Translations under genes and position numbers: made by a program
Assembly (NCBI GenBank): GCA_000092065.1
Contig: CP000587.1
Reading direction: 5' to 3' (one strand)
DNA length: 64,000 nt
From: Ostreococcus lucimarinus
Lineage: Eukaryota
The notes under the pieces: generated by a model
Databases searched by the model: none
What the model was told of the DNA's origin: nothing
What the model saw: only the letters and a program-made list of their open reading frames with translations
In this document: positions 13,045-55,958 of the stretch, piece by piece
Layout of the letters: every line of letters begins with the position of its first letter
How positions within the stretch are numbered: the first letter of the stretch is position 1

Positions 13045-13766
13045 CGCCGCCCGCGTCTCGACGCGTCGAATCGCGCGCGCATTCTTCGCCGCGCCTCTCG
13101 TCTTAATCGCCGCCGTCCCGCGCGCGCTCGCCCGCGCTGCGTTCGTCCAATCGCGATCCCGTCAGTCTTCCATCCTCGTCCCGCCCGCTTCGCGTCCTCC
13201 CGCGCGCGCGTCGCGTCCGCGTCGTCCACCACCGCGCGTTCGCGCGCGCCTCCGACGCGCGCGCGCGTCGTCGCGCGGCCCGCTTCGCGTCATCGCGTCG
13301 CCGCGCGTCGTCGACATCGAATCGAATCGAATCGATCGCGATCGTTCGTCCCGTCGTCGCGCGTCGAGGCGCGTCGTCGCGCCGCGCCGCGGTCGGCGTC
13401 GATCGTTCGCGCGCTCGTTCGATCGCGCACCCGTCATCGCGCGCGTCGTCGTCGTCGCGCGCATCGTCGTCGCCGTCGAAATGTGCGGCGTCGACGACGC
13501 GCGTCGACGCGCGATATCCGATCGCGCGCGCGCGCGCGCGTCGTGAGCCACTCGTTTCTTGGAACTGGTGATGGGTCTCGGAATGCGTCAAGTACGGGAA
13601 TTCGAGCGTTCGATCTTGGATTTATGCAACGCGCGAAACGTCGCGGGCGACGCGAACCGACTTATTTTAGGCGCGCGGAGGCGCGCGGTTGACTCGCGGG
13701 CGGCGCGCGGCAGAGCGCGGCCGGTGGCGCGCGACGTCGACGGGAGGGATCGAGCGCGCGCGTGAG

Positions 13767-16280
13767 ATGGTCGGACGCGTCGCGGTGTTCGCGCGGGTGC
13801 GGCCGAGGGATGGACGCGGGCGCGAGGAGGACGACGGCGAGGGCGCGGAGGCGGGCGGGGAGGACGGCGACGGCGCGGGACGGCGAGGGGCGTGGATCGA
13901 GGACGGACGCGTGGTGAGCGTGAAATCGACGACGTCGGTGAACGGCGTCACGCGGAGGTTCGCGGTGGACGGGGCGTTCGACGGGAGGGCGACGCAGCGG
14001 GAGGTGTACGCGGAGACGTGCGCGCCGGTGCTCGAGGCGGTGCGGAGCGGGTGTCGAGGATGCGTGCTCGCGTACGGACAGACGGGGTCGGGGAAGACGT
14101 ATTCACTACTGAATGGGGGTGGCGATCGAGCCGAACGCGAGGCGTCGACGAGCGAAGGTGGCAACGGGGGGCCGGGACTCGTGCCGAGAATCGCGGTGGA
14201 TTGTTTCGCGCGAGCGGCGAGCGACGCGAGGCACGCGTACGAGGTGTCGTGCGCGATGGCGCAGATTTATAACGAACAGGTCGATGATTTGGTAGCGAAA
14301 AAATCGGGATTACGTGTCGTTCCCGCGAGCGATGGCTCGGGGTGGGAGATTGAGAACTTATCGTGGACGCCGTGTCGAAGCGCCGAGGACGTTCTCGAGT
14401 GTTTTCGTCGCGGGCGATCGCGATTGGTGTACGCCGAGACGCATATGAACAAGCAGAGCTCGAGATCCCACTGTGTGTTTCAGATGAAAATCGAACGCAT
14501 CGAGCGACCGATCGAGGCGGATGTCGATCGCGACGAGGATGAGGATGAAGACGGAACCGCGCAGCTCGTCGCCGTGGAGAAGCGTCTCGGACTGCTCACC
14601 ATCGTCGACTTGGCCGGAAGTGAGCGACAGAAGAAGACGCAGAACGTCGGCGCGCGATTCAAAGAGGCGTTGAACATCAACACCAGCCTGCTCGCTCTAG
14701 GGAACGTCGTAAGTGCGCTCGCGGCGGGGCACAGGCACATCCCGTATCGTGATTCCACGCTTACGAAAATCTTAGAGCCGAGCCTGAACGGCAAGAGTCG
14801 CACGGTTCTGCTCGTGTGCGTCAGCTCCGAGATCGAGCACGCGAACGAAAGCGCGAATTCGCTCGACTTTGCCACGCGTGCGATGCGAATCGTGACTTCA
14901 CCCGAGGTTCGTTCGTCCTTAGTGGACATGGACCCTCGCAAACTGACGCAACAATTGCGCGGTCAATGCGACGACGAAGCGGTGGCGCGTCTGATGGATG
15001 AAGTCACTTCGCTTCGTCGCGCGCTCGCAAACGCGACGAAAAGTTCGGAGGATGACATTAACGCGATGAAAAAGTCGCGCGATTCGCTTCAACACGAGAT
15101 TTGCAGCGCGAGATTGGCGTTGGAGTCTTCGAAGAGGGCGCTCGAGCAAGCGAAGAGCGAGTCGACGACAAAGACGCGCGAGTTGGATGCGATTGAAAAT
15201 CAGCGTAGCGCGCTCGATTCGCGCGTACGCACGCTCGTGGTAAAGTTGAGCACGTCTTCGAATGAGCTGCAGAACGAGAGAGCAAAGTTCAAAGAGGAAT
15301 CAGCGCGACTTGTGGCGGACGCGCGGAAATTGGACGCGCAATTGAGCGCCGAGCGCGCGTCAGCTTCGCACACGCTCAAGCGCATGGAACATCTCAATAA
15401 GCTCGCGAGCGAGCTGAAGGTATCCAACGATTCCAATATCGTTGAGAACGCCAAGCTTAAAGCCGAAAATGTGCGGCTTCGGTCGACTGTTGGATCGCAG
15501 CGGATGGACAACGCGAGATTGATGCGCAGACACGCGGCGCTCGAATCGAAGCACGCCCTCGTCGTCGCCGAACGCGCCGAGCTCGTGTGCGAGTGCGAGT
15601 CCCTATTCATCGAGAACAAATTCATGGTCGTAATACGTGACGCTCTGGCGGCGGCTTGCGACGCAAAAATATCCGAAATGACTCGACGATATGTCAAGTT
15701 GGATGCGATTCGCGCGAGACATTCCATGGCCCGACGAGCGGCCGCTCGTCGATCGACCGAGCGCACGGCGATATTGATGGCTTTAGAGCGATCGAACAAG
15801 GGCGTATTGAAGCACGTGCGCGACTTAGAGAACCACAGGAGCGCCAGTGACGAGAGATACGCTCGAGAACTCGCGGCAGCGCGCGCCGAAGGCGACGCGC
15901 ATCGTCAGCGCGCCAAAGCCGCCGCGCGACTCCACGCTCTCTCCGCCGACCGTCAGCTCGAGCGAGGTTTAGTCTTAACCAAGCTCGCGCGCAATGGCAA
16001 GCGTTACGATCGACTTGTCCGCGTCGATCCATTCACCGGTGCGCTTGAGGCCGCGCAGTTGCCTCGCCGGTTCAAGAAAATCGCGCCGCGGCGCGCCGCG
16101 AGCGACGGCGCCCCGACCGCCGTCGACCGATCGCCGTCCCTCGCTATGACGCGAGACGACCAGCGCGACGTGGTTTCAATTTCTTTACAGAATCGCACGT
16201 TTGATATCGAGGCCACGCACGGCGCCGACCTCGTGTGGGGTCTCGCCCTCGCTCGCCGGTTTGGCGTTCGCGACGGCTGA
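13767..16280 (+). CDS. Kinesin-like protein with an N-terminal motor domain and a long coiled-coil tail
   Basis: Motor-domain motifs are the P-loop GQTGSGKTY, switch/neck-region NINTSLLALGNVVSAL and DLAGSERQ. The C-terminal ~450 aa are heptad-rich. I refined the start to the ATG at 13767. Confidence 0.8.
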   Translation: MVGRVAVFARVRPRDGRGREEDDGEGAEAGGEDGDGAGRRGAWIEDGRVVSVKSTTSVNGVTRRFAVDGAFDGRATQREVYAETCAPVLEAVRSGCRGCVLAYGQTGSGKTYSLLNGGGDRAEREASTSEGGNGGPGLVPRIAVDCFARAASDARHAYEVSCAMAQIYNEQVDDLVAKKSGLRVVPASDGSGWEIENLSWTPCRSAEDVLECFRRGRSRLVYAETHMNKQSSRSHCVFQMKIERIERPIEADVDRDEDEDEDGTAQLVAVEKRLGLLTIVDLAGSERQKKTQNVGARFKEALNINTSLLALGNVVSALAAGHRHIPYRDSTLTKILEPSLNGKSRTVLLVCVSSEIEHANESANSLDFATRAMRIVTSPEVRSSLVDMDPRKLTQQLRGQCDDEAVARLMDEVTSLRRALANATKSSEDDINAMKKSRDSLQHEICSARLALESSKRALEQAKSESTTKTRELDAIENQRSALDSRVRTLVVKLSTSSNELQNERAKFKEESARLVADARKLDAQLSAERASASHTLKRMEHLNKLASELKVSNDSNIVENAKLKAENVRLRSTVGSQRMDNARLMRRHAALESKHALVVAERAELVCECESLFIENKFMVVIRDALAAACDAKISEMTRRYVKLDAIRARHSMARRAAARRSTERTAILMALERSNKGVLKHVRDLENHRSASDERYARELAAARAEGDAHRQRAKAAARLHALSADRQLERGLVLTKLARNGKRYDRLVRVDPFTGALEAAQLPRRFKKIAPRRAASDGAPTAVDRSPSLAMTRDDQRDVVSISLQNRTFDIEATHGADLVWGLALARRFGVRDG

Positions 16281-16385
16281 GCCGCCGCCTCAGCCGCCGC
16301 CTCATTCCCCACCGGTCCTCACCGTCGTGATCGATCGCGTGCGGCGTCGCGTCGCCCGAGTGTGGAACAAACATCGACTCCGCGC

Positions 16386-16802
16386 ATGTCCGGCGGTCGC
16401 TCGCGGTCGCAGAAGCACCAAAACCGCGTGCCGTTCGTCGCCAAGCGGGACATCAAGCGCAACGAGGGCGACCGCGAGCGCGAGCTCGGCCTCCGTAACC
16501 TCGCCCTGCAGAACGTCTGCAAGCGATGTCAGCAAAAGATCGTCTGGCGCTTTCAAATGGGCAAGTATAAAGCGAAGAAACCGGGCACGCGCGGTCGGTG
16601 TAACAAGTGCGAGCAGAAGAGCGTGCGCATGGCGTACCGAAGCCTTTGCGACGCGTGCGGCAAGGCGCACGATTTGTGTCCGGGATGTCAGCACCCACCG
16701 AGCGAGGCGAACGCGAGTCGCGACGTGCCGGAAGCATGCGCGTCGTCCGGCTCAGATTCCGACGCTGAATCGGAACCAGCGTCCGACGGCGAGGAATCTT
16801 AG
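16386..16802 (+). CDS. C9orf85-homolog / DUF2039 family small zinc-binding protein
   Basis: RSRSQKHQN...CKRCQQKIVWRFQMGKYKAKKPG...CNKCEQKSV...CDACGK is collinear with human C9orf85 (SRPQKHQN...CQRCKEVLEWRVKYSKYKP...KCVKCLQKTV). TGTAA lies 24 nt after the stop. Confidence 0.6.
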   Translation: MSGGRSRSQKHQNRVPFVAKRDIKRNEGDRERELGLRNLALQNVCKRCQQKIVWRFQMGKYKAKKPGTRGRCNKCEQKSVRMAYRSLCDACGKAHDLCPGCQHPPSEANASRDVPEACASSGSDSDAESEPASDGEES

Positions 16803-16825
16803 TCGCCGCCAGGCGAACGCGTGAG

Positions 16826-16830
16826 TGTAA
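16826..16830 (+). promoter_or_regulatory. TGTAA putative poly(A) signal for the C9orf85-like gene, 24 nt 3' of its stop
   Basis: The sequence is gcgtgagtgtaacaaac. Confidence 0.4.
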
Positions 16831-16867
16831 CAAACATCTGTAGAGTAGTCTCCACTTTCCCGCGCGC

Positions 16868-18625
16868 ATGAGACGCGAGAGCAGCCCGTTGCTCGTGGAC
16901 GTCGTCGCGGACGATGATTTAGACGACGACGACCCGACGACGTCGTCTCTGGACGCGCGCGTCACCTTTACGCAGCTGTTATCGCTCGCGAAACGCGAGT
17001 GGGACACGTTACTCTTCGGGACACTCAGTCTGCTCGTTCGCCTGCCGTTCTCGGTGTCGATGCCGCATTTCACGAGCGTCGCGATCGGGGCGTCGATTGA
17101 CGGCGATGAAGCGCGATTTCGCGCCAACGTCACGCGGTTCCTGGTCGTTGGCGTGGTGAACGGAGTTTTAGACTTTAGCAATGTGTTCCTCTTTGCGTTG
17201 GCGCAGAGTCGCGTGGCGAGGCGGTTGCGGAATCGAGCGTTCGCGGCGACGCTGAGGAAAAATATGGCGTATTTTGATGCGAGAACGTCGGGTAAAATAA
17301 ATTCGACGGTGACGAACGATACGAGCGCGGTGAGCGCGAATTTGTCTTGGCTGTTACGCAGCTGCGTGGAAGCGGTCGTCAGGTGCGTCGGTGTCGGCGC
17401 ATATCTTTTGTTTTGGGTGAACTTCGAGCTCGGTGCGTTGGCGCTCGTCGTGATACCGATAACAAGCGTGGTCAATTACTTCTATGGCAAGTTATTGAGC
17501 GCTAACGCAGAGTCAGTGCAAGAGACGTTGGCGAAATCGAACGGCGTGGCGCAAGAAACTATTTCAAACATCGTCACGGTGCGATCGTTCGCGAACGAAC
17601 CGTTTGAACGCAGACGGTTCGGCGATGCCATAGATGAGTGGTACGAGCAGTCGTATCGCGCCGCGCAACTGTCAGGATGGTACTATTCGTTTATGTATTC
17701 GCTCGTGTCGGCGTGTTTCGTGCCGGCGGCAATTCTGTACGTAGGAGGTGGATTCGTCGTCGACGGCTCGATGCACGCCGAAAAGCTCGTTGCGACCATG
17801 CTTTATTCTGCGATTTTACAAGAGTATTTCGGGAATCTTTTGAGCTCTTTTACGAATTTGTTCGCCGCGCGAGGTGCAGCGGCGGAATTGTTCAAAGTTT
17901 TGGCCAAGAACGAGCGAGAAGACGACGACGCGGACAATGGCGCGACGCTACCCATCGACGACGTGAAGGGAGCAATATCGTTTTCAAACGTCTCCTTCTC
18001 GTATCCGACTCGACCGGATATTCCCGCGCTCTCGGGCGTGAGCTTCGATGTGTCGCCCGGCGAGATCATCGGCATCGTTGGTCGGAGTGGTTGCGGCAAG
18101 TCTACAGTGTTCGCACTGCTACAGCGTTTCTACACCGAATTTAGCGGCGACATCACACTCGACGGAGCGCGCATCGAGACGCTCTCGCCGAACTGGCTCC
18201 GGCGTCACTGCTTCGCGCTCGTTGGCCAAGAGCCAGTACTTTTCAACGGCACAATTCTTTCTAACATTGCGTACGCTCGTTTGGGCGCCGGAATCGATCG
18301 GGAGCGTGCGATTGAGTGCGCTAAGACTGCGCTGATCCACGACGTCATCGAAGACGAACTCGGCGGCTACGATACACACGTCGGAGAGCGGGGTTGTCAA
18401 TTGTCAGGCGGCCAAAAGCAGCGCGTCGCAATTGCTAGAGCGTTGTACTCGTCTCCGCGGGTGTTATTATTGGACGAACCCACGAGCGCTCTTGATTTAG
18501 AAGCCGAATCCATCGTTACCGCGGCTTTGCGAAAAGCCGCTCGCGGACGAACAACGATCGTCATATCACACACGCCCGTCGACTCGTTCGTCGACAGAAC
18601 TTTAGAACTCTCCCCTAGAACATAG
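16868..18625 (+). CDS. ABC transporter B-family half transporter (TMD-NBD), ATM/TAP-like
   Basis: An N-terminal 6-TM ABC membrane domain is followed by an NBD with Walker A GRSGCGKST, the signature LSGGQKQRVAIARAL and Walker B VLLLDEPTSALD. Confidence 0.85.
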   Translation: MRRESSPLLVDVVADDDLDDDDPTTSSLDARVTFTQLLSLAKREWDTLLFGTLSLLVRLPFSVSMPHFTSVAIGASIDGDEARFRANVTRFLVVGVVNGVLDFSNVFLFALAQSRVARRLRNRAFAATLRKNMAYFDARTSGKINSTVTNDTSAVSANLSWLLRSCVEAVVRCVGVGAYLLFWVNFELGALALVVIPITSVVNYFYGKLLSANAESVQETLAKSNGVAQETISNIVTVRSFANEPFERRRFGDAIDEWYEQSYRAAQLSGWYYSFMYSLVSACFVPAAILYVGGGFVVDGSMHAEKLVATMLYSAILQEYFGNLLSSFTNLFAARGAAAELFKVLAKNEREDDDADNGATLPIDDVKGAISFSNVSFSYPTRPDIPALSGVSFDVSPGEIIGIVGRSGCGKSTVFALLQRFYTEFSGDITLDGARIETLSPNWLRRHCFALVGQEPVLFNGTILSNIAYARLGAGIDRERAIECAKTALIHDVIEDELGGYDTHVGERGCQLSGGQKQRVAIARALYSSPRVLLLDEPTSALDLEAESIVTAALRKAARGRTTIVISHTPVDSFVDRTLELSPRT

Positions 18626-18645
18626 CGCATCAATCAAAATAGAAT

Positions 18646-20130: not shown

Positions 20131-20269
20131 TTTTATGCGCGTTCGTATTCCGCGCGCGCGCGCGCGATCGGGTCGCGCGCGGTAGAATGACGACCGACCG
20201 CTCCAACTGTCTTTCGAAACGCGAGTCGGCGAGTCAGACGCGGACGCGAGCGGGACGCCAGCGAGTGGT

Positions 20270-20274
20270 TTACA
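20270..20274 (-). promoter_or_regulatory. TGTAA putative poly(A) signal for the SAP/J-domain gene, about 78 nt 3' of its stop
   Basis: Plus-strand ggtttacagtgtaag carries ttaca at 20270-20274. A plus-strand TGTAA also occurs at 20276-20280. Confidence 0.35.
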
Positions 20275-20351
20275 GTGTAAGCGGTTACACAGCGATTACA
20301 TCGTCGAGCTAAGGTGAGTTGTCATACTCGCGGGCTAGTGCGATGGAGCGA

Positions 20352-25402: not shown

Positions 25403-27731
25403 TTAAACAAGCGCCGATGCACGGCACTGCGCGTGCGCGTTTAATGCAGTTTGAGCCTGCTCAACCTCGGCTCGTGAACGAACGCTATGTGCCCATTCGG
25501 TGACGGAAGTCGCCGCTTTCGTACCCTCCGCGGCGCTCGCAAGCGACTTCGCCGCGTGCATCAATTCTCCGTTTGCTAAGTGAGTTTCCGCCTTGGCGAT
25601 GGCGCCTTCAATACCCTGCGCGCCTTCGTCGGATGTATCCTTCACGCGAAGCAGTGAAGCGGCGTACGCTAAACCGTGCGCTAACATACCGCCACCGTCT
25701 TGCGGAACCAACGACAACTTTCTCGCCGTGTCCCGAACGCGTTCCAGCTGTTCCGCCAATTGCAAGCGCGTGGGAACGCCTCGCTTTGCCATATCTTGAT
25801 CCAAGCCTTGAATGATGGTGGCGATGAACGGATCCTTTTTTGCGCACGTGTTGAGCAGCGCTAGTGCGTCTTCGAAGGCTTCGCCGTTCTCCACGCGAGA
25901 TCCGAAATCCATGACGGCGAGCTCAAAGCTTTGCACTGCGTGCGCTCGCTCGAGCGCTTCGCGGCGCTTCGTCAGCACTTGTCTCAAAGCTCCCATGCGG
26001 ATGCGCTCTTCATCTAGCGCCTTGATTCGCTCGATGCGTTCAGCGACCAGAAAGTCTGCGTGCTCTGCTTTCAATTTTTTCTCTTGCGTCTTCAGAGCGC
26101 GTTCTTTATCGACGACGGCGCGCTCCTTTTCTCTTTCGAGTTGACGAGAGGCGTCCTCGGCGCGCTGCTCCAAGACGTTGATCGCAGCGATGAGCTCGTC
26201 CGTAACCGATCGCTCGGCACTGACGACAGTTTCGAAGTTTTGAACCATCGACGAGGATAACTCGCTGAAAATTTTCATGTCGGATTCGGATTGAACCTTC
26301 ATGCCGTCCCTTAACGCCGCCTTTTCGTCGTCGCTCAGAGTTTCTCCGAGTGTTTTGACGGCTTCTTCGAGCAGCCGCGCCGCGCTCAGAGATTTCGAAG
26401 CGTTCATAATGCTGACATTTTCTCGCGCGGGCGGTTTCGGTACGTTCACTTTCGCGAGCACTTCAGGTTCCTTTTGATCCGGTTCGTCTTGCGGCACCTG
26501 CGAGCGAAAGACGCGCCGTCAGTACGAGTAAATCTTCGAGTTAATTGCGAATGAAAGATGTCGGCTGGCTCACAGGAACGAGGCGAGGTAAAGCCACGAG
26601 CCTTAGAACTCCAGCGGCGCTTGACGCGCGGTTTGCATGCGTGCGCGCCAAGCTAGCATTTAATGTTGGCCCTTGATAGGTCCGGCGCGGCACCGAGAAG
26701 CCGCGACAGATGAGTATAAGGCCCCGAGAATAAGCGTCACAAAAATACGAAATGTTGCGTACCTCTACGTTGGCGAGGAAGTCCGCGGTCGCGCTGAACG
26801 CGTCCGACAGTTCATCTTTCGCCGTTTCTTTGCCATCCTTCTTCGACTCGGTTGTGGCTTTCTTCGAGTTCGTCAACTCTTTCGCGTCGGGCTGCTTGAC
26901 GATTTCGATTTGCACCTCGACGTCTTTCCGCGCCGCCGCCGCCTTTGGTTTCGCCCGTCGCGGCGGCGGAGGCCTATCTTCCTCGTCCACGACGCTCATG
27001 GAATACGCTAAAAGCGCCGCGATCCCAGCACCGGCGGCGGCTAGAAGCGCCGTGCGATTCGACCCGCTTTCCTCCGTCGGCGTCGCGTTCGCCGCCGCGG
27101 GCGGCGCCGTCGCCGCCGCGCCCGCCGGCTTCGATAACGGCTCCCTCAACACCGTCCCTTTCGTCGCCATCGACTTCGCCTCCGCCAACACCGATTCATG
27201 CAGCGGAAACGTCGCCGCCTTCGCGTGCGGCATCACCCTATTGCCGCTCGTCGGCGGCGGCGCCGCCGTCGCCCGCGCCCGCGCCGTCGCCCGCGCCGCC
27301 GCCGTCGCGTCCCCCATCGTCGCCTTATACGTCCTCGGATCCCCCAACACCGATTCATGCAGCGGAAATTTCTTCGCCGCCGCGTGCGGCACCGCGCGAA
27401 TCTTCCCGATCGGCGGTTTCTTCTTCCTCGACGTCTTCGCCTTCGCCGGCGCCGCGCGCGCCGTCCCCGTCCCCGTCTTCGCCTTCGCCCGCCCCTTTCC
27501 ACCGCCCCTCGCCGTCGCCGTCGCCGCGCCATCCCCCGACGTCGACTTCGTCGTCGTTTTCGTCGTTTTCGTCGCGTATCCGCGTCCGAGCGCGTCCGCG
27601 CGCGCCGCGCGCGTCGCCGACGCCGCGATCCACGCCCGCGCGGTCGTCCCCACGGACGCGCTCGCGCCGCTCCCTCGCGCCGCCATCGCGTCGAGCGCCG
27701 CCGCGCACGCGCGCGCGCGACGCGTCGTCAT
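25403..27731 (-). CDS. MIC60: MICOS complex subunit MIC60 (mitofilin), two exons (26763..27731 and 25403..26497) joined across a 265-nt intron
   Basis: Exon 2 ends with a mitofilin C-terminal domain (AKAETHLANGELMHAAKSLASAAEGT...VTEWAHSVRSRAEVEQAQTALNAHA) that matches the human IMMT C-terminus pattern. Exon 1 supplies a presequence, one TM helix (ALLAAAGAGIAALLAYSMSVV) and a Lys-rich region. The exons are joined by GAG|GTACGC ... TACTGAC-N21-CAG|GTG in phase 0. Confidence 0.65.
26498..26762 (-). other. Spliceosomal intron of MIC60 (GT-AG, 265 nt, ACTGAC branch-like motif 21 nt upstream of the acceptor)
   Basis: Donor gag|gtacgcaac on the minus strand (plus 26762-26761). Acceptor ctttcgctcgcag|gtgccgcaagac (AG at plus 26499-26498). 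The in-ORF sequence between them (RNISYFCDAYSRGLILICRG...) is AT-richer and has no coding character. Confidence 0.6.
27187..27400. repeat. Diverged tandem duplication (period ~159 bp = 53 codons) inside MIC60 exon 1
   Basis: The core caacaccgattcatgcagcggaaa occurs at 27187-27210 and again at 27346-27369. On the minus strand this encodes the repeated peptide (V/M)PHA(A/K)A(K/T)(K/F)PLHESVL. Confidence 0.7.
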
Positions 27732-35875: not shown

Positions 35876-36084
35876 GACGTTTCGACCCCCCTCGCGCGTC
35901 GCGTCGAGTGCCCCGATCCCTTCGACGCCGCGCGTCGTCCTCGTTCCCGTCCCGCGCGCCCGCTCGTCGCGCGCCGCGCGCGCCGAAGCGCGTCACCGCG
36001 CGCGCGCCGCCCGCCCGGCGCGCCCGCCCGCGCGACGACGCGTCGTCGCGTCGTCGCCCCGCGCGACGCGCAGTGCCGACTTCG

Positions 36085-36284
36085 CCGACCGCGCGATCGC
36101 GCGATCGAGGTTCGTCGACGACCCTCGCGCGAGGTTCGACGCGCGCGATCGAACCTCGCGATTTCGGGGTCGATCGACGCGCGCGCCGACCGACGGCGAT
36201 CGCGCGATCGAGGTTCGTCGACGACCCTCGCGCGAGGTTCGACGCGCGCGATCGAACCTCGCGATTTCGGGGTCGATCGACGCG
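36085..36284. repeat. Tandem duplication of a ~103-bp unit with internal inverted repeats, in the intergenic region between the Cys-rich gene (minus strand) and ATP synthase subunit d
   Basis: The unit gatcgcgcgatcgaggttcgtcgacgaccctcgcgcgaggttcgacgcgcgcgatcgaacctcgcgatttcggggtcgatcgacgcgcgcgccgacc occurs twice back-to-back (36085-36181 and 36188-36284). Within each unit gaggttcg occurs twice and its complement cgaacctc once. Confidence 0.85.
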
Positions 36285-36693
36285 CGCGCCGACCGCGCGA
36301 TCGCGCCGACCGCGTCAGAACACCGCGCGCGTCGACGACCGTCATGCTGCGCGCGCTCGCGAGACGAGAGGTGCGAGGCGACGACGCGAGGCGACGCGAG
36401 GCGACGACGACGACGCGCGCGCGCGAGGCGAGGCGACGACGACGCGCGCGCGCGAGGCGACGCGCGAGACGTTCGTAGGGTTGGCGAACGATCGATCGCG
36501 GGGCGCGAGGGACGACGGCGACGCGCGACGGCGACGCGCGACGGCGACGCGAGGGCGAGGGCGAGGACTGACGGAGACGCGGTGTGGTTTCGGGGGGTAG
36601 GTTGGGGCGTTCGCGCGCGCGGCGCGACGGACGTACGCGGGGGACGCGGCGGCGCCGGCGACGGGGAGCTGGGACGCGATCAAGACGGAGGCG

Positions 36694-38671: not shown

Positions 38672-39220
38672 TTAAACGTCGTACTGCTCGTCTTCATCTT
38701 GCGGTTCATCCTTCAAAATCGGTTTCCCTTCGGCGTCGAGCGGCCAAGGATTCCCGTCCACGTCGACGGGCACGTCGAGTTTCATCAACGTCGGCACGCT
38801 CCACGGGTATCGTTTCACCATCCCATACTCGATCGGTCTGCCAAAGTTTTTCTGCGCGCGCGAAATGAAAATCATATCGTCAGTCCCTCGCCTCGATCGC
38901 GTCGACGTCTCGAACGACTCGCCTTGAAATTTTCTTGAAAAATTCTCTGCGCCTCCTTGAACTCCGGCGTCGTGAACGACAACCGCGGATCCTCAAACTC
39001 GCGCATCTTCTCTAACTTCTCCGTGTGTTGCTTCATCTGTTCCAGCAAGTCCATCTGTTCCTTGTCGTTCGGATCGACGCGTCGTTCAAAGTCCTCGAGC
39101 TTGGCTCTGTCCTCCTGCGCGTCGTCGTTCGTCGCCGTCAGTCACCGCGCGCGTCTTTCGCGCGCGTCACCGCACCTCGGCCGCCGCCGCGCCTCCCGTC
39201 CATCTCGCCGCGCCCGACAT
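38672..39220 (-). CDS. Small conserved hypothetical protein, proposed three-exon model (39176..39220, 38923..39114, 38672..38851)
   Basis: Two abutting minus-strand ORFs in different frames (38872..39054 and 38672..38875) can be joined by a 71-nt GC-AG intron (AAG|GCGAGT ... ACTGAC-N25-CGCAG|AAA). A further upstream 61-nt GT-AG intron (GAG|GTGCGG ... ACTGAC-N21-CGCAG|GAG) links a 15-codon first exon. All junctions are phase 0. No confident family assignment. Confidence 0.4.
38852..38922 (-). other. Putative 71-nt GC-AG spliceosomal intron of the small three-exon gene
   Basis: On the minus strand the sequence reads ttcaag|gcgagtcgttcgag...gggactgacgatatgattttcatttcgcgcgcgcag|aaaaactttggc. Splicing joins ...QENFK to KNFGRPIEYG... 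in phase 0. Confidence 0.4.
39115..39175 (-). other. Putative 61-nt GT-AG intron of the small three-exon gene
   Basis: On the minus strand the sequence reads gccgag|gtgcggtgacgcgcgcgaaagacgcgcgcggtgactgacggcgacgaacgacgacgcgcag|gaggacaga. The in-frame TGA inside the intron is bypassed. Confidence 0.35.
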
Positions 39221-39371: not shown

Positions 39372-40631
39372 ATGTTTTCCGTCGACGCGCGAAATTCGTT
39401 GACGAGCGATTCGTCCGCCGGCGCGCGCGCGCGCTTACGGGCGGGCGGCGGCGGCACACCGCGCCGTCTCGCGCGAGCGCCGCACATGGTGCGCGCGGGC
39501 GCGCAGATATTCTTCGCGAGCGTGCGCGCGGTGCTGGAAATATTCTGCGTCGGCGCCGTCGGCGTCCTGGGCGCGCGCCGAGGCTGGCTCGACCGCAAGA
39601 CGTGCAAGACGCTGTCGACGTTTAATGGAAACTTTTTCCTGCCGGCGCTGCTTTGGGTGTCGCTGAGCCGCTCGGTGAGCGCGAGCGCGCTGCGAAAGCT
39701 GTGGTTACTGCCGGTGACGTGCGTCGCGCACGTGACGCTCGGACTGGCGCTCGGGCTGGGCGTCGTGCGCTGGGCGCCGGTGAAGCCGGGCTTCAGAACC
39801 GTCGCGTTGATGTCGAGCGGATTCGGCAACTCGCTGGCTTTGCCGGTGGTCGTGGCGAGGGCGATCATCAAGAACCCGAGGATTGGGAATTTGACGTTCA
39901 CGAGCGATGATAACGATCGAGCGGTGTTGTATCTGTCGTCGTACGTGGTCGTGCTGAGCGGGCTGATGTGGACTCTCGGACCGTTTTTGTTCAGACGACG
40001 CGTAGCCGCGAAAGTTTCGCTCGAGGGAGGGGATGGGGGGGAGATGAGCGAACAGGCGGAACGCGATCGAACGCTGATGCGACAGCGTTCTTTCGCGAAT
40101 AGGACTTTAGATTTTACGCGGACGTTTTTCAATCCCGCGATCGCCTCGTGCGTGTTGGGCGTCGCGACTGGGATGGCGCCGCCGGTGCGAGACATAATTT
40201 TTAACCCCGGGCGCGCGCTGAGTTGGATCGGTGGATCCGCGGAAATGTTAGCCGACGCGGCGATTCCTTCGATTTTACTCGTTATCGGGGCGTCGTTGGC
40301 GTACGGTCCCGATTACAGCTTGGCGGATCGAAAGACGTCTCTCGCCATCGTCGGAGTGCGATTCGCAATAATACCATTCTTTACGATTGGGCTGTATTAT
40401 GCCTTTCGCAACGTCAGTGGGATCGCGCCCGACGATAAAACGTTTTGGCTCGTCTTCTTGATGCTCGGCACGACGCCGACGGCGAACAACATGATGCTTC
40501 AAGCTCAAATGTTCCACGACGACGATCGCGCGGGCGCCGGCGTGGGCACGTTGCTGTTTTGGCAATACCTCGCGTGTCCGGTGTTTCTCACCGCATTCGT
40601 GTCGTGGTACTTAGCCATGATCGATCGGTGA
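39372..40631 (+). CDS. Auxin efflux carrier family / PIN-LIKES (PILS)-type membrane transport protein
   Basis: Two 5-TM bundles flank a hydrophilic loop. The C-terminal block reads ...LVFLMLGTTPTANNMMLQAQMFHDDDRAGAGVGTLLFWQYLACPVFLTAFVSWYL, typical of the Mem_trans fold. Confidence 0.7.
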   Translation: MFSVDARNSLTSDSSAGARARLRAGGGGTPRRLARAPHMVRAGAQIFFASVRAVLEIFCVGAVGVLGARRGWLDRKTCKTLSTFNGNFFLPALLWVSLSRSVSASALRKLWLLPVTCVAHVTLGLALGLGVVRWAPVKPGFRTVALMSSGFGNSLALPVVVARAIIKNPRIGNLTFTSDDNDRAVLYLSSYVVVLSGLMWTLGPFLFRRRVAAKVSLEGGDGGEMSEQAERDRTLMRQRSFANRTLDFTRTFFNPAIASCVLGVATGMAPPVRDIIFNPGRALSWIGGSAEMLADAAIPSILLVIGASLAYGPDYSLADRKTSLAIVGVRFAIIPFFTIGLYYAFRNVSGIAPDDKTFWLVFLMLGTTPTANNMMLQAQMFHDDDRAGAGVGTLLFWQYLACPVFLTAFVSWYLAMIDR

Positions 40632-46779: not shown

Positions 46780-46825
46780 GGAGGGACGAGTTGTGCGGAG
46801 ACGGCTGCGCAGAAGAGGGAGTGAT

Positions 46826-46830
46826 TTACA
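46826..46830 (-). promoter_or_regulatory. TGTAA putative poly(A) signal for VPS35, 9 nt 3' of its TAG stop
   Basis: Plus-strand gtgatttacaaatgcgcgg, which is ccgcgcatttgtaaatcac on the minus strand. Confidence 0.35.
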
Positions 46831-46839
46831 AATGCGCGG

Positions 46840-49341
46840 CTAAACGACGAGCGTGCTGTACCTATCCGCGGTGCCGTCCTCTACTTTGTGTTTCTGCTGT
46901 CGGATATGTGTGAGGGTGTTCGCGTACGATTGTTCGACGTCGCGTAAGGCGCCGATGGATTCGGCGTTGCGAACGTCGCCCACGCTCGACAGCTCGGTGT
47001 TGATCATGTCGATGAGCGCTTGCAATGCCTCGACGGTGACGGAAGTACATCCCTCAGGAGTTTTATCGTAAAAGTACAGGTATTTGTTCAGGATGCCGAC
47101 GTAGAGCCCGAGAGCTTCGATTCGGTTCGCCGCGTTGCCGCCAAAGGTGTCTCGCACGGCGTTGGCTATTTTCACCGATTTCTTCAAGCACGACGCCACG
47201 GAATCGCTATCTTTCACCGTCTCGGTCCAAAATAAGTGTGCGCACGTGTACGCTCCCACGCATTGATCTGGTTTCTTCAGCAAACGCGCGCTATAGCCTG
47301 TAGTTTTGTGCACCAAAGATTCGCGGCTGTCGGCACCAAAGACATTCACTTTGTGCAACGTGCCGATAATTATGAAGAGCAAATTCACCTGTTTCTTCGT
47401 ATCGGTGATGTTTTCTTCGTAAAGTACGAAAGCGCGTTCGAAGAACTCGTACGCGATGGACTCTAAGTTTGCCACCGCGGCAAGTTGTGCGGCTTCGAGG
47501 AAGAGCTTCAGCGCCTTTTCGTGACGTCCGGCCACCTCCGTGAGCGCGGTGATGCTCTTGTGCACAAAGTGAAGCGACTTCTTTAGCCACGGTGACTTGA
47601 CCTCTATCGGCGTCGTAAATGAAATCGCTTCTTTGTCGTCATTGTTCGCATCGGCGGGCACCTCGTCGTCATCCTTCAAAGCCGCAGCCTTTTCTGAAGG
47701 CTTTTCGGCGCGCTCGGCTAGGACAATATCTCTCCCACAAGCGATGCCCGCAAACACGAGCGCGGGAAATGTGTGACGAATTCGCCGAGGTCCGCCTTTC
47801 AGCAAAATGTCGTACGCGGTGTTCAGCATTTCGAGTTGAAGCTCGTGATTATCTTCGGGAGCCTTGATCAAATGTACCACGCGTGCCACGACGTTTTGTT
47901 CCTCGGCAATCGCGGCGCTTCGCTCTTTCTCGACATCTTCCATCGCCTGTGAAGCTTCCTTTGCATCCGCGGACACGACACAGTCTATGAAGTCGTAAAG
48001 CATTTTCACGTGATCCACCGTCGTCAGCGTGCTTCTATTCTTCACCAAAGTTTGCACCACGCCGAGTGCGACTTTTTTCTTCGTGTCTTCGTCCAGCAGC
48101 GCGATGACTTTCGGATACGACTTCAACGAGAGTACGACGGACAGCTCGCACGATTCTAATGGATCGCTAAGTAACGTTGAAAGCTGCTGCGCGACCTCTG
48201 GATCCGTGATTGGAAGTTTACTCTGCAAGGAGTTCGCCAGTGCGAGCAAAATGTCGTCCAAAGTACCCGCTTCGGTGATTTGCAGCTTTCTCGCAAACGC
48301 CATCAACGCCGCGTACATGCCTATAATTTCCTTCGCCGGTACGTCATCGTGTGCTCCAATGATCGCTTGGCAGCATTCAAACGATTTCGGGAACACATCC
48401 GCGGCCTCAAACTCTGACTTTGCCTCGGGAGTTTCCTCGGCGTAACTCAGCAACCGCCCAAGAAGCGCGTTGAGAATCGAACCGACTCGCACATTCGCGC
48501 GCAACATCGACATCGTGGAGAACACTTCTTCGAACGTCGCCAGGTGATATTCGTCCGGAAACACCTGGATGAGTACGTCCAACAAGTACGGCTGTGCGAG
48601 CTCGTCCTTGCAATTCACGACCTGTTCCAGAATGCGCGGTAACACTGTCTCGCGATACAGCTGCAAATCCACGCCCTCGAGCTGAGACAGCGCGAGCAAG
48701 TTCTTCCCCACGAGATCTCGTAGCTCTTCCCGCTCGCCCTCTCGACGCTTCTTCCCGTTTGACGGTCCGATGTGTTGCATACGAACCCACAACTTGTTCA
48801 TCTCGGTGAAATTTTGCAACAAAAACTCCACCGCGTCGTCGATGTTCCCTCCCTCGCCTTCGTACCGCGATCCTTTATCCGGCAACAACCCCTTACTCAT
48901 CTGACTCAAATACGCTCTCAAGAACAACCCGTGCATCGGTTGCTGCACCCCGCGCGTCATCTCCACCAAATCCATCAACACGTCCCTCGCGCTCCCCTCT
49001 CCCAGCTCCACGTACGTCGCCCCAACCGTGATCAGCAGGTACAATCGCGGCAGTATGTTCCCCGCGTGTTGCACTAACTCGTACAACTCCACGCACGACC
49101 GTCCGTGTCGAGACTTATCCCCAAAGAACCGTCGCAGGTGCATCAACTCGTCGCTCGCCGCGATGTACAGCTCGTAGTACCCGCGCGGCGCCGGCGTCGT
49201 CGCCCGCAGTTCGCCCAGCATCAAGCTCGCGCACTTCAGCGCCTCGCGCAGGTTATCCTCGTCCTGATCCATCGCGATCCGATCGTCGTCGTCGTCAGTC
49301 GTCGTCGAGCGCGCGTCGCCAGTCGCGTCGCGTCGAATCAA
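46840..49341 (-). CDS. VPS35: Vacuolar protein sorting-associated protein 35 (retromer subunit)
   Basis: YYELYIAASDELMHLRRFF...CVELYELVQHAGNILPRLYLLITVGATY...MTRGVQQPMHGLFLRAYL and a full-length alpha-solenoid are collinear with VPS35. TGTAA lies 9 nt after the stop. Confidence 0.85.
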   Translation of the reverse strand: MIRRDATGDARSTTTDDDDDRIAMDQDEDNLREALKCASLMLGELRATTPAPRGYYELYIAASDELMHLRRFFGDKSRHGRSCVELYELVQHAGNILPRLYLLITVGATYVELGEGSARDVLMDLVEMTRGVQQPMHGLFLRAYLSQMSKGLLPDKGSRYEGEGGNIDDAVEFLLQNFTEMNKLWVRMQHIGPSNGKKRREGEREELRDLVGKNLLALSQLEGVDLQLYRETVLPRILEQVVNCKDELAQPYLLDVLIQVFPDEYHLATFEEVFSTMSMLRANVRVGSILNALLGRLLSYAEETPEAKSEFEAADVFPKSFECCQAIIGAHDDVPAKEIIGMYAALMAFARKLQITEAGTLDDILLALANSLQSKLPITDPEVAQQLSTLLSDPLESCELSVVLSLKSYPKVIALLDEDTKKKVALGVVQTLVKNRSTLTTVDHVKMLYDFIDCVVSADAKEASQAMEDVEKERSAAIAEEQNVVARVVHLIKAPEDNHELQLEMLNTAYDILLKGGPRRIRHTFPALVFAGIACGRDIVLAERAEKPSEKAAALKDDDEVPADANNDDKEAISFTTPIEVKSPWLKKSLHFVHKSITALTEVAGRHEKALKLFLEAAQLAAVANLESIAYEFFERAFVLYEENITDTKKQVNLLFIIIGTLHKVNVFGADSRESLVHKTTGYSARLLKKPDQCVGAYTCAHLFWTETVKDSDSVASCLKKSVKIANAVRDTFGGNAANRIEALGLYVGILNKYLYFYDKTPEGCTSVTVEALQALIDMINTELSSVGDVRNAESIGALRDVEQSYANTLTHIRQQKHKVEDGTADRYSTLVV

Positions 49342-49569
49342 TCAATCGAATCAATCGCGCAATCATCGCGTCGCCGTCGCGCGTCGCGTCGCGCACCGCC
49401 GCCCGTTTCATGCGAAACGCGTGCTCTTTCACCGACGCCTTCGCCTCGTCCAACCACCGCGCCGCGCGCGCCGGATCGGCGTCGCGCGCGTCCGCGCGCT
49501 GCATCGTCGAGGAGTGCGGCGTCGTCGGCACTCCACCGCGCGACGCGACGACTCGCGACGACGGCGACG

Positions 49570-49580
49570 ATGGCGCTCGC

Positions 49581-49611
<31 letters not shown>

Positions 49612-50586
49612 CGCGCGCTCGCCGCGCGCGGGCGCGTCGCGCGCGACCGTCGCGCGCGCGCGACGACGCGACGCGACGGTTTATCCATCGGCGCGGCGAC
49701 GACGACGCCGCGCGCGCGCGCGGCGTCGACGACGCGCGTCTCGAGCGCGCGCGCGCGCGCGACGGTCGTCGTGAGCGCGCGCGCGAGGTCGCGAACGACG
49801 GCGCGCGCGGCGGAGGGCGCGGCGGCGGCGCCGAGCCCGAGCGGCGCCGAGGGTAAGGCTGGGTTCGACTTGGGCGCGCGCGTCAGAGCGATCGCGTTCT
49901 TCGTCACGTCCTTCTCTCTCGCCGTGCCGCTGATATGCATCATGGCGATGCTGTTTCCGCTGTGCTGGGTGTTCGATCGCACGCGGAGGAGCGCGCTGAG
50001 CTTTTGTAACGACGTGTGGGCGACGGTGTCGACGGCGCTCTTCTTCCCAATCGTCGTGGAGGGACGGGAACACCTGCCGCGTCACGATGAGGCGGCGGTG
50101 TACGTCGCGAATCACGCGTCGTTTATGGACATTTACTCGATGTTTCATCTGCGACGGCCGTTTAAGTTTATCTCGAAGACGAGCAACTTTTTGATTCCCG
50201 TCGTCGGGTGGTCGATGTTTCTCACGGGGCACGTACCGTTGAAGCGCATGGAGCGTCGCTCGCAGATGGAGACGCTGAAGAAGTGTCGGGAGATGCTCGC
50301 CGATGGGGGTTCGGTGTTATTCTTTCCCGAAGGCACGCGAAGCGCGACTGGGAAGATGGCGGCGTTTAAAAAGGGCGCGTTTAGCGTCGCCGCCAAGGAA
50401 AACGTGCCAGTCATCCCCGTCACCATCGTCGGCGCCCACGAAGCCATGGCGAGCGGGAAGGAGTACGAGTTGCACAACGCCGGCATCAAGGTCATCGTGC
50501 ACCCGCGAATACAATCCACCGACGCCGACGATCTGTGTGCGCGTTCGGAAAAGATCATCAAGGAGGCGCTCGTGAACAACTCGTGA
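49570..50586 (+). CDS. 1-acyl-sn-glycerol-3-phosphate acyltransferase (LPAAT/PlsC family), plastid-type with a Thr/Ala-rich transit peptide
   Basis: Acyltransferase motifs are ANHASFMDIY (NHxxxxD), FISKTSNFLIPVVGW, FPEGTRS and VPVIPVTIVG. I refined the start to the ATG at 49570 (MALAAAATTTTTTTRALAARG...). Confidence 0.8.
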
Positions 50587-50819
50587 GCGGACGACGCGTC
50601 CGCGACTCGACGACGAGCGCCCCGATTCACCTTTCCCTCGCGCGCGGCGAGGGCGCCAAAATTGTAATACATCAAAAAGCCGTAGTAGGCGTCGAGCGCG
50701 CGCGCCGAGCGCCGCGCGCTGCGCGCCGTCGCCTTCGCGGGCGTCCCGCCTCGCGTCTCGTCGCCGCCGCGCGCGTCCGCAGACGCGGTCGCGCGCGCGA
50801 GGCGCCGCGTCGTCGCGAC

Positions 50820-52541: not shown

Positions 52542-52670
52542 CGCGGCACTAGTAGCAAAAACAATTCTTTCCATAAAATTAATACTTGTTTAACACGAAA
52601 CCACACGCTCACGAGCGGTCCCATCGCGCGCGCGCTAAGTTGCTACGCTAAATGCACCAGAACGACGCCA

Positions 52671-53225
52671 TCAATCCCATTTCGTCTCGAATCCCGCGGC
52701 CGTCAATCGTCTGCGAAGCTCTAACGCCCGCTTCGGCGTCGTCGGATACAACGCCGTGTGTTCGTCGATGTCCACGTAACTCACCCCAGCCTCATCCGCG
52801 ACGGCTTTTGCGTCGTGATAACGCACGCGACTCTTCAACTCTTGACTCATCCGTCCATCGCCGTACTTCGCGTCGCCCGCGCGCGGCACCTTCCAGTTGC
52901 CCACGAGATACCACCTTTGCTCGCCTTGATCCTCCGCGTAGTACAAATCGCTCACGTCGATCCCGCGCGCGGCGCAATCCTCGAGCGCTCGATCGACGTC
53001 CGATCCCTGTTTCGCCTTCCCCAGCCCCAGCGCGGCGACGCGCGCGCCAAAGACGATGAAACCGGCTTTGATGCCCGAGTCGAGCGTCACGATTTCGGAT
53101 AATCCGGAGGATTCAACCGCGCGTCGCGGCGCGCACACCGCGCGTCGACCGCGCGATGCGACGCGGTTCGACGACGCGCGACCGCACGCGAGTTCGCGCG
53201 CGTTGGCGCACCGCGCGGACGCCAT
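52671..53225 (-). CDS. Hypothetical protein (no confident family assignment)
   Basis: The 184-aa ORF reads more like real protein than low-complexity frame noise (IVTLDSGIKAGFIVFGARVAALGLGKAK...RWYLVGNWKVP...YVDIDEHTALYPTTPKRALELRRRL). It sits divergently from CCDC25. Confidence 0.3.
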   Translation of the reverse strand: MASARCANARELACGRASSNRVASRGRRAVCAPRRAVESSGLSEIVTLDSGIKAGFIVFGARVAALGLGKAKQGSDVDRALEDCAARGIDVSDLYYAEDQGEQRWYLVGNWKVPRAGDAKYGDGRMSQELKSRVRYHDAKAVADEAGVSYVDIDEHTALYPTTPKRALELRRRLTAAGFETKWD

Positions 53226-53269
53226 GACGCCACAATCTGACGCATCGCGTCGCGCCCATCCGTCCCCGC

Positions 53270-53926
53270 ATGGTGCTGTACTACACCCCCGCGGACGCGG
53301 CGACGACGGGGCACGTCATCTACGTCGGCAGGGACAAGGTGGAGAACGAGGACTTGATAAAATATGGCCTCGAGCACGACGTGTGGTTTCACGTCGATAA
53401 GCTCTCGAGCGCGCACGTGTACCTGAGGATGCGACCGGGACAGACGATGGATGACATCACTGCCGAAGAGTTGCGCGACTGCGCGCAGCTCGTCAAGGCG
53501 AATTCGATCGCGGGGAACAAACAGAACGATTTGCACGTGATTTACACGCCGTGGGGGAATCTGCTGAAGCGAGGGGACATGGACGTCGGACAGGTGTCGT
53601 TCAAGGATGAGTCGAACGCGCTCGTGCGGCGGGTCAAGGTGAAGACGCGCGATAACGAAATCGTGAACCGATTGAATAAGACGAAGGTGGAGGCGTATCC
53701 GGACTTGCACGCGGAGCGGGAGGCTTTCGAGGAGAGCGTGCGACAGGCGAAGAAGGAGGCGTATAGGATCGAGGAGGCGAAGCGATTGGAGGAGGAGCGC
53801 GCGAGAAAAGCCGACATCGAAGCGCGAGACTACAAGCACATCATGGTCGACGAAAAGATGAAATCTAACAAGGAAATGGCGAAGAAGTACGAATCTTACG
53901 AGGATGCCGAGGATGACTTCATGTAG
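53270..53926 (+). CDS. CCDC25: Coiled-coil domain-containing protein 25 (NFACT-R_1/DUF814 family)
   Basis: MVLYYTPADAATTGHVIYVGRDKVENEDLIKYGLEHDVWFHVDKLSSAHVYLRM...CAQLVKANSIAGNKQNDLHVIYTPWGNLLKRGDMDVGQVSF is collinear with human CCDC25 over the whole length, including the terminal ...DDFM. Confidence 0.8.
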   Translation: MVLYYTPADAATTGHVIYVGRDKVENEDLIKYGLEHDVWFHVDKLSSAHVYLRMRPGQTMDDITAEELRDCAQLVKANSIAGNKQNDLHVIYTPWGNLLKRGDMDVGQVSFKDESNALVRRVKVKTRDNEIVNRLNKTKVEAYPDLHAEREAFEESVRQAKKEAYRIEEAKRLEEERARKADIEARDYKHIMVDEKMKSNKEMAKKYESYEDAEDDFM

Positions 53927-54113
53927 GTAGCGTAGCTTTTTAATTTTTCAGTATGTCTCATAACACTCGATATTTCACTTTGTGCGCGAACCGGGCTAAT
54001 GGATGGCTCTGAAAAGCGAGAGCGCACGAGTTTGGATTTAATGCACGTGCAGTAGGACAGCGGAACTGGCCGCTCTGTCGCGAAGCTTCATCTCTACTAT
54101 GGAGGCTTGCACC

Positions 54114-55355
54114 TTAGATGAGATCGGCGACGTTGGAGGGAAGTTCCTCGATGACCGTTTGGTAGAAACGTTGGATGTCTTGGAGGAGACGTTCGTCTTC
54201 GGCGGTAACAAAGTTGATGGAAACACCCTTACGACCGAAACGACCGGAACGACCGATACGGTGAAGGTAGTTTTCGGGTTGCGTGGGCAAGTCATAGTTG
54301 ATGACCAAGGAAACTTGCTGGACGTCGATACCACGGGCGAGTAAATCGGTGGTGATCAACACGCGGGAAGAACCAGAGCGGAACTCGCGCATAATGACGT
54401 CACGAGTGTTTTGGTCCATGTCACCGTGCGTGGCGGAGACGGTGAAATCGCGGGCTCGCATGTTATCCGTGAGCCAGTCGACCTTGCGGCGGGTGTTGGC
54501 GAAGATGACGGACTGCGTAATCGCGAGCGTCTCGTACAAGTCGCACAACGTGTCCAACTTCCATTGTTCCTTGTCGACGTTGACGTAGAACTGCTTGATA
54601 CCTTCAAGGGTGAGCTCATCACGCTTGACCAAAATGCGCACCGGCTTGGTCATGAACTTGCGCGTGATCTCGAGCGCTTCCGGCGGGAGCGTCGCGGAGA
54701 AAACACCAACTTGCACCTTCGGCGGGAGCAAGGTGAAAATGTCGTAAATTTGATCCTTGAAACCGCGGGAAAGCATTTCATCGGCTTCATCGAGAGCGAA
54801 AATCTTGATAGAATCGCTCTTCAACGCGCGTCGACGAAGCATATCGTACACCCGACCCGGGGTACCGACGATGACGTGCACACCGGCTTGAAGGATGCGG
54901 GTGTCTTCGCGGACGGAGGTACCACCGACGCACGCGTGGCACTTGACTTGAAGGTAGTCGCCCAAGGCGCGCATAACCTTTTCAATCTGCTGCGCCAACT
55001 CGCGGGTCGGCGCCAAAACGAGCGCTTGGCACTCGTGAACGGAGTAATCCAAGCTTTGCAAGATACCAGCGCAGAAAGTCGCCGTCTTACCCGTACCGGA
55101 TTGCGCTTGCTGAATGACGTCGAAGCCCTTCGAAAACGGCACGATGCCCCGTTGCTGAATAGCAGACGGCTTTTCGAAACCATACGCGTAGATCCCGCGC
55201 AACAAGTTCTCTTGCAAGTTCATCGTATCGAACGTTTCGTGCACCTCGGTCCACTCCGTGATGCCACCCTCTCCGTTCTCATCCTGGTCATCCTTGAGGA
55301 GTTCCTCCATGCCGCGATCGTAGTTCGCGTCGTCGAATCCGCCTTCTCCAGACAT
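54114..55355 (-). CDS. EIF4A: Eukaryotic translation initiation factor 4A (DEAD-box helicase)
   Basis: Full-length eIF4A with Q motif, [21 protein letters not shown] and [13 protein letters not shown]. An ACTGAC-N27-AG acceptor 23 nt upstream of the ATG indicates a 5'UTR intron. Confidence 0.95.
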
Positions 55356-55958
55356 GATTTATGCGTTTCTTTCGTGTGCTGTCGATCGAGTACGTCACGG
55401 ACACCGTCAGTCTTCATTCACCGCGTCTTCATCCCCCCCCCCCAGCCGTCGTTCGACGCCCCGCGTCCGAGACCTCGATCGCTAAGATTGACTCCGATGG
55501 AATCCATCCCGCGGCGGCGCCATCGCCGCCATCGCATTCGCCCCGTCGACGCCGTCACCGATCGCGCCTCGCCGCCGTCGACGCCGCGCGACGATCGCGA
55601 AATCCACTCCCGATCGTTCGCCGCGCGAGCGCGCGCGAACGTCCGATCGCGCGCGCGCGATCGCGCGCATTCGCGACGCGCCGCCGCATCGCGATGCGAT
55701 GCGCGGATTCGCGCGCATCTTCTCGCGTCTTCGCGCGTCGCGCGACGCGGTCGCGGTCGCGCGCGCGCGCGTCCGCGCGCGATCGAAATCGACGAACCTT
55801 TTGTGGGTGCGTTAGGGTGCGGTCGTGCGTTTCAAACGCGACTGTGTGCGGTCGTCGCGTCGCGCGCAGGGCTTGCGCGCGCGGGCGATAAGACGCAGAT
55901 TTCGCGCCTCGTTATTTAGGGTTTATGTTGATACATGTATTTTGTGTTTATATATGTA

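Follow-up and report, generated by a model that had tools for sequence, protein, structure and literature searches.

An ACTGAC motif shared by the seven spliceosomal introns of a 64-kb window of the Ostreococcus lucimarinus genome

The introns of the picoalga Ostreococcus lucimarinus were described by Irimia and Roy (PLoS Genet 2008; PMC2483917) in a section entitled "The peculiar case of Ostreococcus". Among 319 introns outside chromosome 2 that were confirmed by expressed sequence tags (ESTs), 87.2% contain the hexamer ACTGAC and 66.5% its extended form GACTGACG. The donor consensus is GTGCGTG, CGCAG is the preferred acceptor, and the distance from the branch to the AG shows a broad peak at 20-35 bp (PMC2483917). 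We analyzed a stretch of 64,000 nt of contig CP000587.1 (assembly GCA_000092065.1), hereafter the window, which is nuclear DNA of O. lucimarinus CCE9901; its GC content, 57-67% along the entire length, fits a standard chromosome. The window contains about 46 tightly packed genes, as judged by scoring of open reading frames (ORFs) and Pfam matches. Seven spliceosomal introns, spread over six of these genes, were established, and in all of them ACTGAC precedes the AG of the acceptor by 18-28 nt. With a probability of about 93%, we regard them as ordinary introns of the U2 spliceosomal type, belonging to the "constrained" class that characterizes O. lucimarinus outside chromosome 2. The ACTGAC consensus has been known in this species since 2008, and the present result is its rediscovery from one window. 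It adds to the 2008 account very small first exons missed by public models, one GC-AG intron, one intron in a 5' untranslated region (UTR), and switching of the motif between orthologs.

Seven introns and their signals

The introns, together with the coding parts of three short first exons, are listed below. All signals are read on the strand of the gene, slashes mark splice sites, and N is the number of nucleotides from the motif to the AG.

13137-13430, minus strand: intron of the glucose-1-phosphate adenylyltransferase (AGPase) gene, 294 nt, phase 1; donor ACGG/GTGCGCG, gaagACTGACggg at 13166-13161, N22, acceptor ACGCAG
13431-13464, minus strand: coding part of AGPase exon 1, 34 nt from the start codon, MRATTTTRAMT plus one base
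26498-26762, minus strand: intron of the MIC60/mitofilin gene, 265 nt, phase 0; donor AGAG/GTACGCA, cgtACTGACggc at 26523-26518, N18, acceptor TCGCAG
36344-36370, plus strand: coding part of exon 1 of the ATP synthase subunit d gene, nine codons, MLRALARRE
36371-36600, plus strand: intron of the ATP synthase subunit d gene, 230 nt, phase 0; donor AGAG/GTGCGAG, gaggACTGACgga at 36567-36572, N26, acceptor TAG
38852-38922, minus strand: intron 2 of a three-exon gene, 71 nt, phase 0, GC-AG type; donor CAAG/GCGAGT, agggACTGACgat at 38884-38879, N25, acceptor GCGCAG
39115-39175, minus strand: intron 1 of the same three-exon gene, 61 nt, phase 0; donor CGAG/GTGCGGT, ggtgACTGACggc at 39142-39137, N20, acceptor GCGCAG
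49264-49396, minus strand: intron of the VPS35 gene, 133 nt, phase 0; donor GGCG/GTGCGCG, gacgACTGACgac at 49299-49294, N28, acceptor ATCAG
49397-49504, minus strand: coding part of VPS35 exon 1, 36 codons, MQRADARDADPARAARWLDEAKASVKEHAFRMKRAA
55379-55797, minus strand: intron in the 5' UTR of the eIF4A gene, 419 nt, its acceptor 23 nt ahead of the ATG; donor AAAG/GTTCGTC, gaagACTGACggt at 55411-55406, N25, acceptor GACAG

The seven introns have a common geometry. ACTGACG is found in six and the extended form GACTGACG in five. The presumed branch A and the 3' splice site are 22-32 nt apart, and in every intron the acceptor is the first AG located at least 18 nt past the motif. This AG belongs to a CAG in six introns and to a TAG in one, and four of the acceptors end in CGCAG. 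Six introns have GT-AG termini and one is GC-AG; the donors begin with GTGCG in four introns and with GTACG, GTTCG, and GCGAG in one each. There is no polypyrimidine tract, the sequence that separates motif from acceptor being 35-67% pyrimidine. Intron lengths range from 61 to 419 nt, for a total of 1,473 nt of sense-strand intron. Five of the seven lie in a 5' UTR or within the first 36 codons.

A preliminary description of the window, made from the sequence alone, had noted the motif at six places, that is, in every intron listed above except that of VPS35, which it had overlooked. All six motifs exist on the sense strand of their gene. The boundaries that it gave for the MIC60 intron and for both introns of the three-exon gene, as well as the acceptors at 13137 and 55379, are exact to the base. 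The ATP synthase d site is real and is followed by a TAG as described; the motif starts at 36567 rather than at 36571, and N25 separates it from the TAG. This site had been placed upstream of the gene, and the AGPase site in a 5' region. Both placements are wrong: these are introns of the coding sequence, lying behind exons of 9 and 11 codons, respectively. The general claim that each intron ends with ACTGAC 21-30 nt ahead of a CAG is correct for the motif and the AG (seven of seven), and needs amending for the acceptor, which is CAG in six cases out of seven, and for the spacing, which is 18-28 nt.

Removal of the intron is seen for three introns and is needed to obtain a conserved protein for three more. 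The first three, those of the ATP synthase d gene and of the three-exon gene, are confirmed because the spliced products are identical to UniProt entries. The 181-aa ATP synthase d product matches UniRef100_A0A7R9T0V0, annotated as "ATP synthase subunit d, mitochondrial" of Ostreococcus sp. 'lucimarinus'. From the same organism, UniRef100_A0A7R9SZ14 is identical to the 138-aa product of the three-exon gene (39220-39176, 39114-38923, and 38851-38672). Judging from their accession series, these two entries are probably translated transcriptome sequences. The preliminary description had also reported one GC donor. This donor, AAG/GCGAGT at 38922-38921, is confirmed since only the GC splice yields the 138-aa UniProt protein; for the nearby GT at 38918-38917, no AG is available with which splicing would bring back the reading frame. 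Introns of the GC-AG type form a well-known minority. The three-exon gene itself (38672-39220, minus strand) encodes an acidic protein of 138 aa without Pfam match.

The ATP synthase d intron has an interior made of short GC-rich tandem repeats. In O. tauri, the orthologous gene has an identical exon 1, with GTGCGT as donor and GACTGACG in the intron. Among public models, XP_001418739 of O. lucimarinus is labeled "partial", is 141 aa long, and is devoid of exon 1. Separately, the intergenic region between the start of this gene and the divergent gene upstream contains a tandem repeat at 36083-36306, with 2.2 copies of a 103-nt unit and 96% matches.

In the AGPase gene, the 11-codon exon 1 splices in frame in phase 1 to an ORF that extends back to the acceptor without a stop codon. 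The spliced product is 498 aa long and its N-terminus resembles a plastid transit peptide. The public model XP_001418959 (433 aa) begins at MDNVLS, without transit peptide; relatives have 50-75 residues ahead of this point. An intron is present at the identical position and in the same phase in three other Ostreococcus lineages, with ACTGAC in two of them (L019 and L020) and ACTAAC in the third (L021).

VPS35 matches positions 21-725 of the Pfam Vps35 profile (799.3 bits) when exon 1 is left out, and positions 1-725 (822.7 bits) when it is included. The O. tauri locus L017 shows a matching end of exon 1, ...MRRAA/GTGCGTT, followed by GACTGACG and a TAG acceptor. The MIC60 intron is located in the interior of the coding sequence. 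Three intron-less relatives with continuous ORFs (P0070, P0073, and P0075) align without gap over the junction ...ADFLANV(E or P)/(V or E)P.... An O. tauri MIC60 model (P0063) has an insert exactly at this junction, because the model reads through the intron.

The eIF4A ORF (413 aa) is identical to XP_001418972/ABO97265 of O. lucimarinus CCE9901 in an exact look-up, and the putative intron precedes it. In the O. tauri-type loci L008 and L009, an upstream UTR exon, an AAG/GTTCGT donor, and GACTGACG are conserved; on reading the sequences, the intron interior differs and the acceptor shifts from CGCAG to TAG. Seven metagenomic contigs (L001-L007) encode an identical eIF4A protein, and their introns are also ~97-100% identical. 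These contigs are uninformative on conservation since they come from the same species. Among these near-identical environmental O. lucimarinus contigs, a run of G in the intron (55431-55441, minus strand) varies from 9 to 11 residues.

These results have value for annotation, as ACTGAC flags introns missed by ORF-based or older gene models. When filtered for the sense strand, the motif recovered all seven introns of the window. Its use as an intron tag, put forward in the preliminary description, led to the recovery of first exons absent from the ORFs or from the models, and restored the N-termini of ATP synthase d, the AGPase small subunit (with its transit peptide), and VPS35. For ATP synthase d and AGPase, the public models of strain CCE9901, which are members of the 90% clusters of these two proteins, are truncated.

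Conservation, pairing, and placement of the motif

In the orthologous introns of other Ostreococcus lineages, an NCTRAC element (ACTGAC, ACTAAC, or TCTGAC) is kept in place while the rest of the intron diverges. For MIC60, nine lineage variants have ACTGAC, ACTAAC, or TCTGAC 13-26 nt ahead of the AG. Close lineages differ: the 3' ends of their MIC60 introns carry ACTAAC versus GACTGACC (L012/L027 versus L023/L034/L044). Turnover of the motif thus stays within the CTRAC consensus, and the element behaves as would a CTRAC branch site whose exact spelling drifts. As the intron positions are common to O. tauri and other lineages, the introns are old. That the branch-point consensus of this intron-poor genome is strict and specific to the lineage, as proposed in the preliminary description, is supported by these data, ACTGAC being present in all seven introns and the orthologs retaining the NCTRAC element.

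Complementarity to the branch-site recognition sequence of the U2 small nuclear RNA (snRNA), which the preliminary description had suggested checking, was found with the O. tauri molecule. In this species, U2 contains GTGTAGTATCTGTTC, within ...CAGATCAAGTGTAGTATCTGTTC..., and U1 starts with ATACTTACCTG (PMC7671301, Supplementary File 2). Both are canonical, the elements taken as canonical being GUAGUA for U2 and ACUUACCUG for U1. ACUGAC fits GUAGUA with a G.U wobble: the predicted pairing would consist of A-U, C-G, U-A, the G.U wobble, a bulged branch A, and C-G. Co-evolved snRNAs are thus ruled out for O. tauri, where U1 shows no change that would match the unusual GTGCG donor. In the mechanism that we propose, the spliceosome would recognize a donor resembling G/GTGCG (in one case AAG/GCGAGT) and a near-invariant (G)ACTGAC(G), in which branching presumably occurs at the penultimate A. 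It would then use the first AG located 18-28 nt past the motif, mostly within CGCAG. As proposed in PMC2483917, these signals may be strict because splicing signals are under strong selection where the genome has few introns.

Several points weigh against this assignment to constrained U2-type introns with ACTGAC as branch site. That ACTGAC is the actual branch site is suggested by its position and by the consensus, here as in PMC2483917. The G residues flanking the hexamer in GACTGACG are unexplained by pairing with canonical U2, and the snRNA sequences are those of the congener O. tauri, not of O. lucimarinus. The arguments for the putative eIF4A UTR intron are solely comparative, and it is the least directly supported of the seven. 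Protein look-ups yielded no exact entry for the spliced products of AGPase, VPS35, and MIC60 (the last in five start variants), probably owing to differing start codons or public models. Finally, the bare hexamer is not enriched window-wide. We counted 12 copies on both strands, for an expectation of 19.4 +/- 4.2 from dinucleotide shuffles and of 10.3 from a 4th-order Markov model. The gapped pattern ACTGAC-N18-32-YAG gave 9 matches versus 4.6 +/- 2.1, a marginal excess, as 4 of 100 shuffles reach 9. An apparent depletion of ACTGAC outside introns (5 versus 19 by dinucleotide shuffles) disappears under the higher-order Markov model, which predicts 10.3 for all 12.

Such counts, at or below expectation for the hexamer and only about twofold above it for the gapped pattern, are those expected if ACTGAC and an AG 20-30 nt further on co-occurred frequently by chance at 61% GC, the examples having been picked near ORF breaks. 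In addition, at two of the eight sites of the gapped pattern (17482-17517 and 40392-40418) the match lies antisense to coding sequence and does not mark an intron, and the MIC60 site, with N17 ahead of its CAG, falls just outside the pattern. Chance does not, however, account for the location of the motif. Every independently established intron has it on the sense strand at a uniform distance from the acceptor. The sense strand of introns, which represents 1.2% of the strand-specific sequence, holds 7 of the 12 copies where 0.14 would be expected (binomial 2e-11, a value in part circular, since the motif was one of the means by which the introns were found). The remaining five copies are all in coding sequence, two sense and three antisense, and none has a usable acceptor downstream. 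As the hexamer is unenriched in bulk, the signal therefore lies in its placement; in the comparison with chance frequency advocated in the preliminary description, the motif stands out by its placement and hardly by its abundance. Together with the conservation of the motif position in orthologs whose surrounding intron has diverged and with the published genome-wide figure of 87% (PMC2483917), this makes chance co-occurrence extremely improbable.

A common origin of the introns could also explain a shared 3' end. If they were copies of a mobile "introner" element, ACTGAC would be inherited from a repeat rather than selected. Such elements are documented in the related alga Micromonas (PMC4540971). 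Several interiors of the window introns are similar at first sight, with GC-rich GACG/CGCG repeats, and two introns share gaagACTGACgg. However, an all-against-all comparison of the seven introns gave matches of at most 21 nt, all in low-complexity repeats, with no alignable body; they are therefore not introner elements, and this origin can be given hardly any credit. It is further contradicted by lengths varying from 61 to 419 nt, by the entirely different composition of the MIC60 intron, and by the old positions shared with O. tauri and other lineages. Alternatively, GACTGACG might be mainly a 5'-proximal regulatory element of transcription or translation, its position at intron ends being secondary. 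The proximity of five of the seven copies to the start codon (within ~130 nt) fits this possibility, as does the location of five introns in the 5' UTR or the first 36 codons. However, two of the motifs, in MIC60 and in intron 2 of the three-exon gene, are deep inside coding regions, and the motif stays 18-28 nt from the AG that is used while its distance to the ATG varies. The motif also agrees with the CTRAC consensus, which is universal for branch sites, and with the GUAGUA box of U2. Introns are as a rule biased toward the 5' end of genes where a genome contains few of them, which counts against a regulatory function, and we judge such a function very unlikely. Constrained U2-type introns thus remain the preferred interpretation.

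An RNA candidate in the MIC60 intron and further observations

The MIC60 intron differs from the others of the window and contains a conserved central segment.

26556-26725, minus strand: H/ACA-like RNA candidate, 170 nt, inside the MIC60 intron, three hairpins

Between O. lucimarinus and O. tauri, this 170-nt core shows 86% identity, compared with 35-37% for the remainder of the intron and 66-74% for the flanking exons. Orthologs of the core were found in L011, L012-L016, and L022-L044, and across Ostreococcus lineages it is much better preserved than the exons on either side. The predicted fold comprises 39 consensus pairs in 10 distinct sequences; four of them show compensatory changes and very few are broken. 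The hinge holds ACAUUA (26666-26661), and the sequence ceases to be conserved 3 nt past an ACA (26561-26559). An 8+8-nt internal loop is present in hairpin 1, with 14 nt between the top of this loop and the H box, and the RNA includes a 13-nt invariant loop, ACGCAUGCAAACC. In the L024/L043 lineage, AAAUUG replaces the H box.

Rfam gave no hit in the window at the gathering threshold and none at E<=10 in 26400-26850. A metagenome scan for this RNA detected it in Ostreococcus MIC60 introns only; other loci and other genera yielded no copy. None of six 11-12-mers derived from it occurs in the sequence supplement listing 131 O. tauri small nucleolar RNAs (snoRNAs) (PMC7671301). Of these 131 snoRNAs, 72 are intronic (Bousquet et al., NAR Genom Bioinform 2020, PMC7671301). 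Like O. tauri intronic H/ACA snoRNAs, the candidate has an ANANNA hinge box, a terminal ACA, and a 14-nt spacing between the putative pocket and the H box. It differs from them by its three hairpins instead of two and by the lack of an Rfam match. It is conceivable, though we hold it to be somewhat less likely than the contrary, that the persistence of the MIC60 intron throughout Ostreococcus is due to its hosting a three-hairpin H/ACA-like small RNA specific to this genus. The conserved segment is a modest lead for the cataloguing of picoalgal snoRNAs.

We also searched the non-coding stretches of the window for CTGAC, CTAAC, and ACTAAC and found no further intron and no intron devoid of the motif, a search that is blind to very short introns or UTR introns lacking CTRAC. 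A TCTGAC-N24-CAG at 20237 (minus strand) was rejected as an intron end, there being no donor between the site and the upstream stop codon. Likewise, two GCTGAC sites at 16532 and 16691 (minus strand) were discarded since they are antisense to a small intron-less gene (16387-16802, plus strand).

Long antisense ORFs are frequent in this GC-rich window, where they confound gene maps built on ORF length. One of them (2987-4315, minus strand) was rejected as a gene because it overlaps an LSM-domain gene on the opposite strand. The latter (3911-4189, plus strand) encodes 92 aa with a Pfam LSM match at 7e-19 and lies antisense within the spurious ORF.

Comparison with known intron classes

The window introns share with U12-type introns a highly conserved branch box near the 3' end and the absence of a polypyrimidine tract. 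U12-type introns differ by a /RTATCCTT donor and by a TCCTTAAC box located 10-15 nt from the acceptor. We looked for both features in the donors and branch regions of the seven introns, and neither is present. Micromonas introners come from a related picoalga (Mamiellales) and, like the window introns, have a recognizable common sequence. They differ in being alignable full-length repeats, often inserted in a lineage-specific manner, whereas the window introns have only signals and low-complexity composition in common.

A closer parallel is provided by the TACTAAC introns of hemiascomycete yeasts. In both cases, the genome is intron-poor, the introns are concentrated toward the 5' end of genes, the donor consensus is strong, the branch hexamer is near-invariant, and the first AG serves as acceptor. 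Position 4 of the motif is G in Ostreococcus and not A as in yeast (ACTGAC), which would lead to a G.U wobble with U2, and the donor is GTGCG instead of GTATGT. The yeast lineage being unrelated, these similarities reflect convergence, as argued in PMC2483917.

The closest counterparts are the constrained O. lucimarinus introns described in PMC2483917. The ACTGAC or GACTGACG motif, the CGCAG acceptor, the spacing of 20-35 nt, and the GTGCG donor are the same. The seven introns of the window are members of this set, from which they show no essential difference.

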